Assembly: GCF_054482595.1 (NCBI RefSeq) | Contig: NZ_CM137008.1 | Direction: 5' to 3' (one strand) | Length of the DNA: 64,000 nucleotides | In this document: piece after piece, positions 35,860 to 46,746 of the stretch | Position numbering within the stretch: the first letter of the stretch is position 1 | Layout of the letters: every line of letters begins with the position of its first letter | Translations under genes and position numbers: made by a program | Notes under the pieces: model-generated | The model's input: only the letters and a program-made list of their open reading frames with translations | Told to the model about the DNA's origin: nothing | Database searches by the model: none

Positions 35860-36585
35860 TCACGCCTGACGGTGCGATGAGTAATGTATTTCATACTCTT
35901 CCCGGTAGAGAGTTTCCCCCCAAAGAACCGGTTTATTCTCAGCAGTCAAATAAGTATGTTGTCGTACCAGAATTGGGCGGGAACGCTTTATTTTCAGCTT
36001 CTGGGCCGCATCCCGGCTGGGCAGCGCCACATGAACCTGGTTGGCAATTGTCTGTATCTCTATGCGAAGTGCCTGCTCAAAAATGTTTTGCAACGCATGG
36101 ACTTCCAGTTCCTGCTTATCTATTTGCAGGGCAAGAATTGAAGGCATATAACGAATTTCGAATGCAATTGGCTGCTGATTTATCAAGCGCAACCTTAACA
36201 GCCGATGGATGCTCTCTTTGCCTGATAACATCAGTTTTGTCCGTAAGAGTTCTGACGTTGAGACAGGTGCGAATTCGACGAGTTGATATTCGAGGTGTTT
36301 GTCGACACCAACCAGATCTTTTTCAAAAAATCCAAGAGATTGCGTATCCATTACGGTGATAATGGAAGGTTTTTTAACGAAGGTTCCACGTCCCCGAATG
36401 CGTTCAATCAATCCATCCGTAAGAAGACCCTGCATCGCATGGACCACTGTCGCTCGGGTGGTATTAAATTGGGCTGCAAGTTCGTTTTCAGAAGGTAAGC
36501 GTTCGCCTTGTTTATATACATTTTGTGCTATTCCATTGCGTAATGCTTCTCTGATCTGCAGGTAAATTGGCAAATTGCGATGCAT
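35860..36585 (-). CDS. GntR/HutC-subfamily transcriptional regulator
   Basis: 241 aa with an N-terminal winged HTH (LPSENELAAQFNTTRATVVHAMQGLLTDGLIERIRGRGTFV) and a UTRA-like C-terminal domain. Divergent from the lactonase gene. Confidence 0.85.
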   Translation of the reverse strand: MHRNLPIYLQIREALRNGIAQNVYKQGERLPSENELAAQFNTTRATVVHAMQGLLTDGLIERIRGRGTFVKKPSIITVMDTQSLGFFEKDLVGVDKHLEYQLVEFAPVSTSELLRTKLMLSGKESIHRLLRLRLINQQPIAFEIRYMPSILALQIDKQELEVHALQNIFEQALRIEIQTIANQVHVALPSRDAAQKLKIKRSRPILVRQHTYLTAENKPVLWGETLYREEYEIHYSSHRQA

Positions 36586-36608
36586 GTCAAATTAATCCTT
36601 CATTCTAA

Positions 36609-36630
36609 GTTGCATAGTCAACTATACAAC
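36609..36630. promoter_or_regulatory. 22-bp near-perfect palindrome in divergent promoter region: candidate GntR operator
   Basis: GTTGCATAGT-CA-ACTATACAAC. The half-sites differ at 1/10 positions. It lies between the GntR start (36585) and the lactonase start (36708). Confidence 0.5.
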
Positions 36631-36707
36631 TTCAAGGGTGACGGTATGTCATTTTAGCAGATATCACCTTCAGGTGTGGTCAGTTAAACATAAATGAGTT
36701 AGAGAAA

Positions 36708-42709: not shown

Positions 42710-43261
42710 ATGCACCTGCTTCCTGAACTCGCCAGCCACCATGCGGTGTCAATTCCCGAGCTGCTCGTCAGCCGGGATGAAAGGCAAGCACGGCAACACG
42801 CCTGGCTCAAGCGCCATCCTGTTCCACTGGTCTCCTTTACCGTGGTTGCGCCTGGGCCGATTAAAGACAGCGAGGTCACACGCCGAATTTTTAATCATGG
42901 CGTGACAGCCTTGCGTGCCTTAGCCGCAAAACAGGGCTGGCAAATTCAGGAGCAGGCTGCACTGGTTTCCGCCAGCGGGCCGGAGGGCATGTTGAGCATT
43001 GCCGCCCCGGCTCGCGACCTCAAGCTCGCCACCATTGAGCTTGAACATAATCATCCTCTCGGGCGGTTATGGGATATCGATGTCCTGACGCCCGAAGGCG
43101 ACATTCTCTCCCGCCGCGATTATTCACTGCCGCCTCGCCGCTGCCTGTTGTGCGAGCAAAGCGCAGCTGTTTGCGCGCGTGGAAAAACCCATCAACTGAC
43201 CGATTTACTCAACCGCATGGAGGCGCTGCTGAACGATGTCGATGCCTGCAACGTCAACTAA
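42710..43261 (+). CDS. citX: Apo-citrate lyase phosphoribosyl-dephospho-CoA transferase
   Basis: 183 aa in the position and of the size of CitX. Confidence 0.88.
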
Positions 43262-44123
43262 AACCACAAAGCTTGCGACGTCATTAATCGATGAGTACGC
43301 CCTGCTGGGCTGGCGCGCCATGCTGACTGAAGTCAATCTGTCACCGAAACCAGGCCTCGTGGATCGGATTAACTGCGGTGCGCATAAAGATATGGCGCTG
43401 GAAGATTTTCACCGCAGCGCGCTGGCGATTCAGGGCTGGTTACCCCGTTTCATTGAATTTGGTGCCTGTAGTGCAGAAATGGCACCGGAAGCGGTACTCC
43501 ACGGATTACGCCCAATTGGTATGGCTTGCGAAGGTGATATGTTCCGCGCCACTGCGGGCGTAAACACGCATAAAGGCAGCATTTTTTCTTTAGGGCTGCT
43601 ATGTGCGGCAATTGGCCGTTTGCTTCAGCTCAACCAGCCGGTAACGCCAACAACCGTATGTTCTACGGCGGCAAGTTTCTGCCGTGGCCTGACCGATCGT
43701 GAACTGCGTACCAATAATTCACAACTGACGGCAGGTCAACGGTTGTACCAGCAGCTAGGCCTTACCGGCGCACGCGGTGAAGCCGAAGCGGGTTATCCAC
43801 TGGTGATCAACCACGCCTTGCCGCATTACCTCACTCTGCTGGATCAGGGATTAGATCCTGAACTGGCATTGCTCGATACCTTGCTCCTACTGATGGCTAC
43901 CAACGGCGATACCAACGTTGCATCGCGCGGTGGCGAGGGGGGCCTGCGCTGGCTACAGCGCGAGGCGCAAACATTATTGCAAAAAGGGGGCATCCGAACC
44001 CTCGCCGATCTCGATTATCTCCGGCAGTTCGACAGGGAGTGTATCGAACGAAATCTCAGTCCAGGCGGCAGTGCCGATTTGCTAATTGTCACCTGGTTTT
44101 TAGCGTCCCTAACCGGGCGCTGA
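43236..44123 (+). CDS. citG: Triphosphoribosyl-dephospho-CoA synthase
   Basis: 295 aa, [26 protein letters not shown].... It overlaps citX by 26 nt. The C-terminus (..[10 protein letters not shown]) differs from the K-12 ending as I recall it. Confidence 0.88.
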
Positions 44124-44148
44124 ATCATTAATATATCCGGAGTTAACT

Positions 44149-46746
44149 ATGTTAAAAGAATACCGTAAGCATGTAGCTGAGCGTGCCGCTGAGGGGATTG
44201 CGCCCAAACCCCTGGATGCAAACCAAATGGCCGCGCTTGTAGAGCTGCTGAAAAACCCGCCCGCGGGCGAAGAAGAATTCCTGTTAGATCTGTTAACCAA
44301 CCGTGTTCCCCCTGGCGTTGATGAAGCCGCCTATGTCAAAGCAGGCTTCCTGGCTGCTGTCGCCAAAGGTGAAGCCAAATCCCCACTGCTGACACCGGAA
44401 AAGGCCATCGAACTGCTGGGCACCATGCAGGGTGGTTACAACATTCATCCGCTGATCGACGCGCTGGATGATGCCAAACTGGCACCGATCGCTGCCAAAG
44501 CACTTTCTCACACGCTGCTGATGTTCGATAACTTCTATGACGTAGAAGAGAAAGCCAAAGCAGGCAACGAATATGCGAAGCAGGTAATGCAGTCCTGGGC
44601 GGATGCCGAATGGTTCCTGAATCGCCCGGCGCTGGCTGAAAAACTGACCGTTACCGTCTTCAAAGTCACTGGCGAAACCAACACCGATGACCTCTCTCCG
44701 GCACCGGATGCGTGGTCACGCCCGGATATCCCACTGCACGCGCTGGCGATGCTGAAAAACGCCCGTGAAGGCATCGAGCCAGATCAGCCTGGTGTTGTTG
44801 GCCCGATCAAACAGATTGAAGCTCTGCAACAGAAAGGTTTCCCGCTGGCGTACGTCGGTGACGTTGTGGGTACGGGGTCATCGCGTAAATCCGCCACGAA
44901 CTCCGTTCTGTGGTTTATGGGCGATGATATTCCACATGTGCCGAACAAACGCGGCGGTGGTTTGTGCCTCGGCGGTAAAATTGCACCCATCTTCTTTAAC
45001 ACGATGGAAGATGCGGGTGCACTGCCAATCGAAGTCGACGTCTCTAACCTGAACATGGGCGACGTAATTGACGTTTACCCGTACAAAGGTGAAGTGCGTA
45101 ACCACGAAACCGGCGAACTGCTGGCAACCTTCGAACTGAAAACCGACGTGCTGATTGATGAAGTGCGTGCTGGCGGCCGTATTCCGCTGATTATCGGGCG
45201 TGGCCTGACCACCAAAGCGCGTGAAGCACTTGGCCTGCCGCACAGTGATGTGTTCCGTCAGGCGAAAGATGTCGCTGAGAGCGATCGCGGCTTCTCGCTG
45301 GCGCAGAAAATGGTAGGTCGTGCCTGCGGTGTGAAAGGCATTCGTCCGGGCGCGTACTGCGAACCGAAAATGACTTCTGTAGGTTCACAGGACACCACCG
45401 GCCCGATGACCCGTGATGAACTGAAAGACCTGGCGTGCCTGGGCTTCTCGGCTGACCTGGTGATGCAGTCTTTCTGCCACACCGCGGCGTATCCGAAACC
45501 AGTTGACGTGAATACGCACCACACGCTGCCGGACTTCATTATGAACCGTGGCGGTGTGTCGCTGCGTCCGGGTGACGGCGTAATCCACTCCTGGCTGAAC
45601 CGTATGCTGCTGCCGGATACCGTCGGTACCGGTGGTGATTCCCATACCCGTTTCCCGATCGGCATTTCTTTCCCGGCAGGCTCCGGTCTGGTGGCATTTG
45701 CTGCTGCAACTGGCGTCATGCCGCTGGATATGCCGGAATCCGTTCTGGTGCGCTTCAAAGGCAAAATGCAGCCGGGCATCACCCTGCGCGATTTGGTACA
45801 CGCTATTCCGCTGTATGCGATCAAACAAGGTCTGCTGACCGTTGAGAAGAAAGGCAAGAAAAACATCTTCTCTGGCCGCATCCTGGAAATTGAAGGTCTG
45901 CCGGATCTGAAAGTTGAGCAGGCCTTTGAGCTGACCGATGCGTCCGCCGAGCGTTCTGCTGCCGGTTGTACCATCAAGCTGAACAAAGAACCGATCATCG
46001 AATACCTGAACTCCAACATCGTCCTGCTGAAGTGGATGATCGCGGAAGGTTACGGCGATCATCGTACCCTGGAACGCCGTATTCAGGGCATGGAAAAATG
46101 GCTGGCGAATCCTGAGCTGCTGGAAGCCGATGCAGATGCGGAATACGCGGCAGTGATCGACATCGATCTGGCGGATATCAAAGAGCCAATCCTCTGTGCT
46201 CCGAACGACCCGGATGACGCGCGTCCGCTGTCTGCGGTACAGGGCGAGAAGATCGACGAAGTGTTTATCGGTTCCTGCATGACCAACATCGGTCACTTCC
46301 GTGCTGCGGGTAAACTGCTGGATGCGCATAAAGGCCAGCTGCCGACCCGCCTGTGGGTGGCACCGCCAACCCGTATGGACGCCGCGCAGTTGACCGAAGA
46401 AGGCTACTACAGCGTCTTCGGTAAGAGTGGTGCGCGTATCGAGATCCCTGGCTGTTCCCTGTGTATGGGTAACCAGGCGCGTGTAGCAGACGGTGCGACG
46501 GTGGTTTCCACCTCTACCCGTAACTTTCCGAACCGTTTGGGTACTGGCGCGAATGTCTTCCTGGCTTCTGCGGAACTGGCCGCTGTTGCGGCGCTGATTG
46601 GCAAACTGCCGACGCCGGAAGAGTACCAGACCTACGTGGCGCAGGTAGATAAAACCGCCGTTGATACTTACCGTTATCTGAACTTCAACCAGCTTTCTCA
46701 GTATACCGAGAAAGCGGATAGGGTGATTTTTCCTAGTGTGGTTTAA
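44149..46746 (+). CDS. acnB: Aconitate hydratase B / 2-methylisocitrate dehydratase, full length
   Basis: 865 aa, colinear with K-12 AcnB ([26 protein letters not shown]...; Fe-S ligands in CSLCMGNQ). GGAG lies 6 nt upstream of the ATG, which is only 25 nt after the citG stop. Confidence 0.92.

Follow-up and report, generated by a model that had tools for sequence, protein, structure and literature searches.

How did citrate-lyase and aconitase B genes come to stand behind a foreign regulator, a predicted lactonase and a carrier in Escherichia coli, and what might such a cluster degrade? The question is raised by positions 35,860–46,746 of a 64,000-nucleotide stretch of contig NZ_CM137008.1 (assembly GCF_054482595.1; hereafter the window), in which a divergent GntR gene is followed by nine tightly packed plus-strand genes (36708–46746): an amidohydrolase gene, a carrier gene of the major facilitator superfamily (MFS), citCDEFXG and a full-length acnB. 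In K-12 the layout is dpiBA–citCDEFXG–citT with acnB elsewhere, whereas the window block lacks both citT and dpiBA, with acnB following citG and the MFS gene preceding citC. A sequence-only reading had described these gene families and short spacers, the missing citT and citAB (dpiBA) genes with a divergent GntR/HutC gene in place of the latter, and the contrast with K-12, and all of this is borne out by the list of open reading frames (ORFs) and by Pfam and NCBIfam searches. Taken overall, the most probable explanation is that the block is an acquired catabolic operon, mobilised by insertion sequences (IS) and mosaic in structure, that uses a tricarboxylate lactone through AcnB and citrate lyase.

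The distal genes are of standard type. The products of citC, citD, citE, citF, citX and citG reach 590, 144, 452, 815, 266 and 641 bits against family cut-offs of 262, 65, 443, 501, 158 and 477 (TIGR00124, NF009726, TIGR01588, TIGR01584, NF002383 and NF007503, respectively), and the block AcnB scores 1716 bits against a TIGR00117 cut-off of 1287, with all three domains present (Aconitase_B_N, Aconitase_2_N and Aconitase). CitD and CitE are the K-12 proteins without a single difference, CitF carries four residue changes and CitX three, and AcnB differs from its K-12 counterpart at 8 of 865 residues, six of them in terminal codons. Because these proteins are identical or nearly identical to those of K-12, the block is predicted to encode a genuine citrate lyase and a genuine aconitase B.

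At the nucleotide level, this likeness to E. coli is bounded. By megablast, window positions 38898–44104 are ~98% identical to the ordinary E. coli cit locus and positions 44150–46754 ~97% identical to ordinary acnB, and similarity to E. coli is absent upstream of citC, between citG and acnB, and beyond ~20 nt past acnB. Interiors show 1–3 differences from K-12 per 100 nt, whereas gene termini are 25–75% diverged. There are 10 differences and a codon indel in the first 30 nt of citC, 25 differences in the last 50 nt of citG, whose encoded C-terminus is not that of K-12, and 4 and 7 differences in the first 30 and last 37 nt of acnB, respectively. The island AcnB begins with MLKEY and ends with DRVIFPSVV before the stop codon, non-E. 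coli termini that are identical in the three island copies examined. A three-way site test between the island, K-12 and a related operon in Enterobacter gave ~18 K-12-matching informative sites per 100 nt against 0–1 Enterobacter-matching sites across 38.9–44.1 kb, with the pattern reversed outside. The crossover points are sharp and fall in stretches identical across all lineages (AAACGTTCAGAAAA at 38919–38932, GGCGGCAG near 44073 and AAGAATACCGTAAGCA near the acnB start). Sequence of the foreign operon type makes up the regulator, lactonase and carrier genes, the spacers between genes, and the opening and closing codons of citC, citG and acnB. The island alleles are as close to resident alleles as resident alleles are to one another (~98% for cit, 97.1% for acnB), which places them within E. 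coli species diversity. Together, these comparisons show the E. coli operon to be a mosaic, in which the ~5.1-kb citC–citG and ~2.5-kb acnB interiors were replaced by ordinary E. coli alleles through homologous exchange.

The source of the foreign frame was sought by tracing lactonase homologues, through protein-cluster look-ups, to their contigs; a single-protein scan of species-representative genomes returned two distant loci and nothing more. In Enterobacter sp. (chromosome CP135594.1 and a second contig), a divergent GntR gene precedes an Amidohydro_2 gene (75% amino acid identity), an MFS gene and citC, D, E, F, X and G, and window positions 35866–44295 align to this locus as one collinear 8.4-kb high-scoring segment pair at 79% identity, spacers included. 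After citG, the Enterobacter locus shares the spacer and ribosome-binding site of the window block. There follows a decayed stretch of ~150 nt from the 5′ end of acnB (17424–17600 of the extracted CP135594.1 locus), interrupted by an in-frame TAG and by a frameshift, the remainder of the gene being deleted; this remnant implies that acnB followed citG in the common ancestor and was lost later in Enterobacter. It also suggests that the operon-borne acnB may be dispensable where a housekeeping AcnB exists.

Other genera carry variants of the same frame. Citrobacter amalonaticus and Salmonella enterica subsp. salamae have the E. coli order with the carrier family swapped and oxaloacetate decarboxylase genes added (divergent GntR, Amidohydro_2, CitMHS, citCDEF(X)G, an 865-residue AcnB, oadG and oadA). 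In a Klebsiella oxytoca variant, the AcnB gene lies immediately upstream of the GntR gene, followed by lactonase–CitMHS–citCDEFG–oadGAB, and two metagenomic enterobacterial contigs place the GntR/lactonase/MFS module beside or directly upstream of the housekeeping acnB–yacL. A more distant relative (locus L025) reads GntR, isocitrate-lyase-family enzyme, MFS, aconitase, PrpF and lactonase, while Pseudomonas and Paraburkholderia carry a minimal module of regulator, carrier and lactonase alone. In Ralstonia solanacearum, an MFS–lactonase pair on the megaplasmid is conserved in many strains (132 records). In every type of context, minimal modules included, the carrier has no partner more constant than the lactonase, and at least six independent arrangements in different genera link the lactonase clade to AcnB and/or citrate lyase.

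These relatives bear directly on how the block arose. The sequence-only reading had taken cit and acnB to have been joined to the cassette and knew of no description of the order; the frame's presence in other genera shows that the order is not unique to E. coli and overturns the implied origin. An E. coli-specific novelty, in which core citCDEFXG and acnB became attached to an unrelated GntR/lactonase/MFS cassette when IS elements rearranged or duplicated them, would account for interiors 97–98% identical to E. coli core genes, for similarity bounded at gene edges and for the IS elements that flank the block, but order, spacers and junctions are shared with Enterobacter (79%, acnB remnant), Citrobacter and S. 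salamae, the terminal codons of citC, citG and acnB are operon-type rather than E. coli-type, and the internal junctions carry no IS scars. We consider such an origin very improbable. The operon frame is, on these comparisons, ancestral and foreign to E. coli rather than built there from core genes, the E. coli-like interiors having entered later by homologous replacement, and that the block represents an acquired, conserved operon type with E. coli-overwritten interiors is highly probable. A step in GC content from 45% to 55% at ~38.9 kb, coinciding with the citC crossover, was considered as a mark of chimerism and set aside, the step existing in every genus, the unconverted Enterobacter operon included (41.7% to 57.4%).

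Variation among E. coli carriers is concentrated in the replaced genes. Compared with the window, the copy in strain 51489 has ~11 differing sites in the left module (gntR–lactonase–carrier, 3 kb) and ~190 in the 7.8 kb of cit and acnB; the copy in strain 746 differs at one site in the left module and at 47 in cit and acnB, the latter in patches. Overall, identity among carriers is at least 99.5% for the left module and 97–99% for cit and acnB, and the tracts of the window and of 51489 have the same boundaries. Shared boundaries and variation focused in cit and acnB fit a single founding replacement, with later exchanges with E. coli alleles while the block passed from host to host. As a separate observation, the resident acnB genes of K-12 and strain 746 differ at 2.9% of positions, as much as either differs from the island copy and high for a core housekeeping gene; this might reflect island-to-resident exchange in some lineages.

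The complete block is found end to end, with identical junctions, in 30 complete E. coli chromosomes (megablast) from humans, dogs, mink, poultry, gulls, seawater and wastewater, sampled in several countries by unrelated projects. An assembly chimera with artefactual junctions, which the unusual adjacency alone would invite, can be treated as negligible in view of this recurrence across projects and hosts, the presence of the left module in 32 genomes and the same junctions in other genera. Among 5,426 complete genomes, 32 (0.6%) carry the left module, single-copy, chromosomal and at least 99.5% identical throughout, in a megablast census that a copy as diverged as that of Enterobacter would escape; a candidate unconverted operon in E. 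coli was dropped on the same census, which gave solely these near-identical copies.

The block also appears to be mobile, as the sequence-only reading had proposed, and its flanking elements were correctly recognised: the ISL3 element on the left is ISEc38, and the IS66 debris on the right includes a tnpC pseudogene. In one context, seen in the window and in strains GTEN_97 and 746, ISEc38 lies to the left and the IS66 remnant to the right; in the other, in strain 51489, LacI/ABC-transporter genes and an inverted IS66-family remnant lie to the left and IS3 and IS100 to the right. The right-hand IS66 remnant of the window has an 87.6% identical counterpart, inverted, on the left of the block in 51489. 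Intact paired IS or target duplications were not identified around the segment in these two contexts. The segment shared between them (35587–46902) is the apparent unit that moved, and the comparison supports the reading of the block as a mobile accessory operon in at least two IS-bounded contexts. All ten block genes are annotated as intact in the three carriers inspected. As the sequence-only reading had asked, further canonical loci were looked for in one carrier: strain 746 keeps resident citCDEFXG–citT and acnB–yacL, so that in that strain cit and acnB of the island come in addition to the resident genes, which answers one of the objections that the sequence-only reading had raised against itself.

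Plasmid carriage of the module was sought by tblastn, which found lactonase homologues (at most 50% identity) solely on Burkholderiaceae and Ralstonia megaplasmids and none on enterobacterial plasmids. A plasmid match over the exact cit span (NZ_LR890350.1, E. coli, IncHI1A, 80.8% identical) proved to be an ordinary dpiAB–citCDEFXG–citT–rna segment from another enterobacterium and irrelevant to the block. In its own right, this conjugative plasmid carries the foreign dpiAB–citCDEFXG–citT–rna–rnk–uspG segment beside IS26 and IS66, another route by which E. coli can gain extra citrate-lyase genes.

Turning to what the operon might degrade, the lactonase (36708–37505) is the informative protein. 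A PDB sequence search placed it nearest to 2FFI (1e-67) and 4I6K (7e-59), structural-genomics entries deposited as ‘putative PDC hydrolases’ (PDC, pyrone dicarboxylate), with authentic LigI at 4.5e-24 and ~25% identity. An AlphaFold (AF2) model built on 25 homologues (pLDDT 92.6) matched 4I6K and 2FFI with TM scores of 0.95 and 0.92, 4MUP (Atu3138, uncharacterised) with ~0.84, 4DLF with 0.83, LigI (4D8L, 4DIA and 4DI8) with 0.78–0.82, and the decarboxylase branch (ACMSD, LigW and IDCase) with 0.7 or less. We take 4DLF to be L-fucono-1,5-lactonase, a cog3618 amidohydrolase. In alignment, the protein keeps the LigI catalytic residues (H6/H8 for H31/H33, the DH motif, the DWPH Asp, and R98 for R124); the roles of H31, H33, H180 and D248 in LigI were reportedly assigned by Hobbs and co-workers in 2012. 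At the position of LigI R130 it has Val104, and 2FFI and 4I6K also have a residue other than Arg. The best NCBIfam match, 4-sulfomuconolactone hydrolase, reaches 137 bits against a cut-off of 500. By sequence and model, then, the protein is predicted to be a member of the cog3618 lactonase clade, in the 2FFI/4I6K subgroup and not LigI. The earlier designation as LigI-like holds for the clade and the catalytic residues but not for LigI itself. The ~25% identity to LigI, the loss of R130 and the separate subgroup make a PDC-like substrate, one of those suggested in the sequence-only reading, unlikely. Entry 4I6K was reportedly deposited with citrate bound, a possible lead to the ligand.

The gene content suggests a four-step route, similar to the order of import, ring opening, AcnB isomerisation and citrate-lyase cleavage that had been proposed from the window and that now has strong comparative support in the at least six independent arrangements of lactonase with AcnB and/or citrate lyase. 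The carrier would import a tricarboxylic-acid γ-lactone; the lactonase would open the ring to an isocitrate-type product; AcnB, which interconverts citrate, cis-aconitate and (2R,3S)-isocitrate, would isomerise this product to citrate; and citrate lyase would split citrate into acetate and oxaloacetate, the reaction that this enzyme catalyses. Oxaloacetate would be passed to oxaloacetate decarboxylase where the operon encodes it, as in Citrobacter, Salmonella and Klebsiella, and be reduced to succinate in E. coli. Control would be exerted by a HutC-type GntR repressor. The native cit operon is induced by CitA/DpiB on external citrate; because it answers solely to that signal, it would stay silent on a lactone, and the operon would carry its own enzymes.

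That the operon catabolises a tricarboxylate lactone through AcnB and citrate lyase is, from gene content and enzyme knowledge, probable. Isocitrate lactone (5-oxotetrahydrofuran-2,3-dicarboxylate) is our best single candidate for the substrate, supported by gene context tentatively and with appreciable doubt; isocitrate γ-lactone forms readily from isocitrate, and a literature search found reports of isocitric lactone from urine and plasma, from wine, and from metabolomes of aloe and other plants. An isocitrate-type ring-opened product is indicated because the lactonase repeatedly partners AcnB, citrate lyase and oxaloacetate decarboxylase and, once, an isocitrate-lyase-family enzyme; because aerobes, in which isocitrate could pass straight into the tricarboxylic acid (TCA) cycle, have minimal carrier–lactonase modules; because Enterobacter lost its operon acnB, for which housekeeping AcnB could substitute; and because housekeeping alleles can occupy the E. 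coli enzyme genes. With such alleles in place and all nine ORFs intact, the pathway would need just standard aconitase and citrate-lyase specificity, and the overwriting suggests that the intermediates may be ordinary isocitrate, cis-aconitate and citrate. Hydroxycitrate lactones and other relatives are possible substrates as well.

Two alternatives would keep the operon catabolic and change its substrate. In the first, a free tricarboxylate (citrate, isocitrate, aconitate, perhaps as a metal complex) would be fermented, and the amidohydrolase would, for example, hydrolyse an ester, amide or anhydride of a tricarboxylate or serve as hydratase or decarboxylase. The carrier slot is occupied in most genera by CitMHS, the family of metal-citrate carriers, and Amidohydro_2 does include hydratases and decarboxylases, but the protein falls in the cog3618 branch, the functionally named solved members of which are lactonases (LigI and 4DLF), keeps the LigI catalytic residues, fits the decarboxylase branch worse (TM at most 0.7 versus 0.8–0.95) and accompanies the carrier most constantly, even in minimal modules; we judge this alternative unlikely.

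The second alternative is another lactone, such as that of hydroxycitrate (hibiscus or garcinia acid), of homocitrate or of methylisocitrate, or a pyrone or muconolactone of aromatic origin, like the substrates of LigI and 4-sulfomuconolactone hydrolase. It could draw on the sulfomuconolactone hydrolase match, far under its cut-off as that is, on the ‘putative PDC hydrolase’ label of the PDB relatives, on a Ralstonia homologue beside ferulate genes, and on a neighbouring second module in K. oxytoca and Escherichia fergusonii (with a lactonase, PrpF, two aconitases and an Iso_dh-family enzyme) that hints at a family of related substrates. The distance from LigI and the Val in place of its Arg130 count against a pyrone, no LigJ or LigK partners are present, and the downstream enzymes of E. 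coli, near wild-type AcnB and citrate lyase, favour citrate, aconitate or isocitrate as the product, so that a lactone of this other kind seems rather unlikely.

The second module is an observation in itself. In K. oxytoca (positions 1–8965 of the locus) and E. fergusonii (13009–20795 of the locus), an uncharacterised cluster adjoins the lactonase module and reads: divergent LysR, PF10282 β-propeller lactonase, CitMHS, aconitase (~648 residues), PrpF, YbhJ-like aconitase (754 residues), Iso_dh-family dehydrogenase (387 residues) and AcnB. It presumably resembles an expanded form of the E. coli ybhD/ybhH/ybhI/ybhJ/pgl region, and it may handle a related tricarboxylate lactone.

Several observations weigh against a functional operon for an isocitrate-type lactone, or against parts of the history set out above. 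The Ralstonia MFS–lactonase pair adjoins, on the opposite strand, genes for coniferyl-alcohol dehydrogenase, benzaldehyde dehydrogenase and feruloyl-CoA synthase of ferulate/vanillin metabolism, a context in which the substrate of at least part of the family could be an aromatic-derived lactone. A characterised member of the 2FFI/4I6K subgroup was not found in the PDB search or the full-text literature, and the substrate is thus guessed from gene context. No sigma-70 consensus emerged from a simple scan for promoters in the 122 nt between the divergent genes, and within the block internal promoter and terminator consensus matches were at or below chance. As regards the exchanges, conversion by the allele of the present host was considered in strain 746 and rejected: the island cit genes are 97.9% identical to that strain's own resident genes, and island cit and acnB are no closer to the resident copies than to K-12. 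At the 47 sites that separate the 746 island copy from the window, the resident allele is present at 19 and absent from 28. In the one strain tested, exchange with the present host is thus not supported, and the exchanges would have to have taken place in other hosts or with other alleles.

Selection bears on whether the block does anything in E. coli. Relative to Enterobacter, the regulator and carrier show dN/dS values of 0.043 and 0.03 and the lactonase a pN/pS of 0.19, and on this measure the left-module genes are under purifying selection. Within E. coli the left module is too uniform for a selection test, a further point on the opposing side, and there the operon could be a neutral passenger: a functionless resident of the pathogenicity-island region, rare (0.6% of genomes) and lying amid IS debris and pseudogenes, whose overwriting is neutral erosion. 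Set against this are the ten genes annotated as intact in three carriers despite 1–3% divergence in cit and acnB, replacement tracts that keep reading frames and operon-type start regions, and a block that stayed whole through at least one relocation, and we hold the passenger explanation to be unlikely.

For the catabolic operon that we favour, comparison with known systems clarifies what is shared and what is new. With the citrate fermentation loci of Enterobacteriaceae (dpiBA–citCDEFXG–citT in E. coli; citS–oadGAB–citAB and citCDEFG in Klebsiella and Salmonella), the block shares the complete CitDEF lyase, the ligase CitC and the prosthetic-group genes citX and citG; oadGAB-type genes also follow in the Citrobacter, Salmonella and Klebsiella versions of the operon, and the end products would presumably be acetate and oxaloacetate or pyruvate. 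It differs in having no CitT/CitS carrier and no CitAB/DpiBA sensor, and in having a HutC-type GntR regulator, a cog3618 lactonase, an MFS carrier (CitMHS elsewhere) and its own AcnB. The lack of both a citrate carrier and a citrate sensor implies that the substrate entering the cell is not citrate, and the block may function as a citrate-fermentation operon whose front end and regulation are new.

LigI, the 2-pyrone-4,6-dicarboxylate hydrolase of protocatechuate 4,5-cleavage, is itself a lactone hydrolase that yields a tricarboxylate, and it shares with the block protein the cog3618 fold (TM ~0.8), the HxH motif, the His, the DWPH Asp and Arg124 (R98). Sequence identity is low (~25%), Arg130 is replaced by Val, and the block partners are AcnB and citrate lyase rather than LigJ, LigK and LigU; neither LigJ hydratase nor LigK aldolase was found in the block or in any related locus inspected. 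The L-fucono-1,5-lactonase BmulJ_04915 (17% identity) and 4-sulfomuconolactone hydrolase have the same fold and clade and the same presumed ring-opening chemistry, but NCBIfam scores are well under the equivalog cut-offs (24 versus 400 and 137 versus 500, respectively) and the partner genes are not those for sugar-acid or sulfocatechol enzymes. Closer in its partners is the AcnD/PrpF/AcnB/PrpB branch of the 2-methylcitrate cycle: the L025 relative clusters the lactonase with an aconitase, PrpF and an isocitrate-lyase-family enzyme, and AcnB is the shared isomerase. The E. coli operon differs in having no PrpF, AcnD or PrpB and in that C–C cleavage would fall to citrate lyase. Finally, the mosaic recalls gene conversion between paralogues (tufA/tufB, rRNA operons), where a second copy is homogenised with the resident, with crossovers at shared sequence and flanks untouched; here the recipient is an acquired, ~80%-identical xenologue in a mobile operon and the donors lie across E. 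coli diversity.

The regulatory frame is conserved along with the lactonase. The regulator combines a GntR winged helix with a C-terminal UTRA effector domain and diverges from the lactonase gene; a GntR–UTRA gene lies beside the lactonase gene, divergent or co-oriented, in nine Enterobacterales and Pseudomonas loci, and other regulators do so in three (L010, L021 on a Ralstonia megaplasmid, and L025). The palindrome that the sequence-only reading had noted at this divergent region is real, but 26 bp long rather than 22 bp (Table 1). As a candidate operator it has a core, GTTG(C/T)ATAGTCAA, that six genera keep in the same place beside the regulator gene. The carrier is 92% identical to that of the Enterobacter operon, while a CitMHS carrier fills the slot in most other genera. 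Its assignment as an ACS-type carrier could not be established: the ACS model TIGR00893 gives 79.6 bits against a cut-off of 395, the best NCBIfam match is the OPA-type TIGR00881 (110.7 against 407.75), and the nearest solved relatives are SLC37 (SLC37A4, about 1e-12 to 4e-12) and SLC17 (VGLUT/sialin, about 1e-8 to 3e-8), followed by DgoT (7e-5).

The packing of the genes is as first described, with 5 nt between the MFS stop and the citC ATG, a citC frame open back to 38784, and 25 nt containing GGAG between citG and acnB; other spacers range from −26 to 31 nt. A single transcript from lactonase to acnB is plausible. Past the acnB stop, within the shared segment, lies a perfect hairpin with a weak U-tail, the 3–5-nt loop of which is inverted in strain 51489 with stems unchanged; it could serve as a terminator or be a site connected with recombination or with an IS. 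An Rfam scan of window positions 35400–47200 gave no match.

Together, these results lead us to propose that Enterobacteriaceae have an undescribed fermentative pathway for isocitrate γ-lactone, or for a close plant or host tricarboxylate lactone, in which a new front end of lactonase, carrier and regulator, together with a dedicated AcnB, is set before citrate lyase, and of which the E. coli operon has been repeatedly overwritten by housekeeping cit and acnB alleles within a foreign regulatory frame; as a whole, we regard this proposal as possible, with the balance somewhat against it. On this proposal, the overwriting would be a natural experiment in which standard enzyme specificities suffice for the pathway. 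The full-text literature yielded no description of the operon, of a bacterial isocitrate-lactone or hydroxycitrate-lactone pathway, or of a 2FFI/4I6K function, in a search whose coverage does not extend to all journals and which leaves room for a prior description. If true, the proposal would give a first function to a widespread, structurally solved amidohydrolase subgroup that ranges from gut enterobacteria to plant- and insect-associated Burkholderiaceae, Ralstonia and Pseudomonas. It would also add a new entry route to citrate fermentation, from a lactonised tricarboxylate common in plant foods and body fluids, and such a lactone could be a niche-defining nutrient for some lineages of E. 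coli, Klebsiella, Citrobacter and Salmonella. The mosaic itself would represent an acquired operon homogenised with host core genes, in a clean example of a mobile xenologue and core genes evolving in concert. Island genes of this kind mimic simple duplications, which matters for annotation, pangenome work and phylogenies of cit and acnB.

Table 1. Features of the operon and its immediate surroundings, in window coordinates.
Feature	Position	Strand	Basis or remark
ISEc38 (ISL3 family), left neighbour	33827–35548	-	RefSeq annotation of identical copy
Shared mobile segment, 11.3 kb	35587–46902		98.1% identical between two E. coli chromosomal contexts (window versus strain 51489)
GntR + UTRA regulator	35860–36585	-	PF00392 1.6e-18, PF07702 8.3e-23
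Candidate operator, 26-bp imperfect palindrome	36607–36632		AAGTTGCATAGT-CA-ACTATACAACTT; 12-nt arms, 2-nt spacer, 11/12 complementary
cog3618 Amidohydro_2 lactonase (predicted)	36708–37505	+	Pfam family, fold, alignment
MFS_1 carrier, 449 aa	37537–38886 (ATG 37537; alternative GTG start 37483)	+	Pfam
citC	38892–39947	+	NCBIfam cut-off reached
E. coli-type cit tract	38933–44072	+	~98% to resident E. coli cit alleles, 80% to Enterobacter operon
citD	39962–40258	+	NCBIfam cut-off reached
citE	40240/40255–41163	+	NCBIfam cut-off reached
citF	41174–42706	+	NCBIfam cut-off reached
citX	42710–43261	+	NCBIfam cut-off reached
citG	43236–44123	+	NCBIfam cut-off reached
citG–acnB spacer, 25 nt	44124–44148	+	Ribosome-binding site with GGAG (GGAGTTAACT ATG)
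acnB, full-length paralogue, 865 aa	44149–46746	+	TIGR00117
E. coli-type acnB interior	44181–46715	+	97.1% to resident alleles, 82.8% to Citrobacter operon acnB, 70.5% to K. oxytoca acnB
Perfect 16-bp hairpin	46814–46846	+	68 nt past acnB stop, within shared segment; fold z-score −3.0
IS66-family remnant (tnpC pseudogene), right neighbour	46953–47590	-	RefSeq annotation of identical copy

Around the block extends a large island rich in IS elements, with gsp type II secretion genes, a CP4-like module and Ag43 alongside. Type II secretion genes gspD–M occupy window positions 1–8740, and the CP4-like module (DUF4942, CbtA/CbeA toxin–antitoxin, antirestriction and DUF932), followed by the Ag43 autotransporter gene, positions 8840–17600. 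Carriers differ at this left edge: in GTEN_97, kps capsule genes rather than gsp precede the same CP4-like module. At 25620–27730, the window has an IS3-family element that is opposite in orientation and slightly shifted relative to the otherwise identical GTEN_97 island. On the right, positions 48660–56076 hold a mixed set of genes for sugars and sugar acids: a UxaA-family hydrolase pseudogene, agaR, two aldolase fragments, malX (PTS IIBC), a MalY/PatB-family gene and a 629-residue ‘enterotoxin’ gene; we take malX to be a classic marker of pheV-type pathogenicity islands. Further on, at 58349–61996, an amidohydrolase gene (436 residues), the gene for the C4-dicarboxylate carrier DcuC and a divergent LysR regulator gene (annotation transferred from the identical GTEN_97 record) form a second small metabolic cassette, bracketed by IS66 sequences at about 56404–58003 and 62104–63753.

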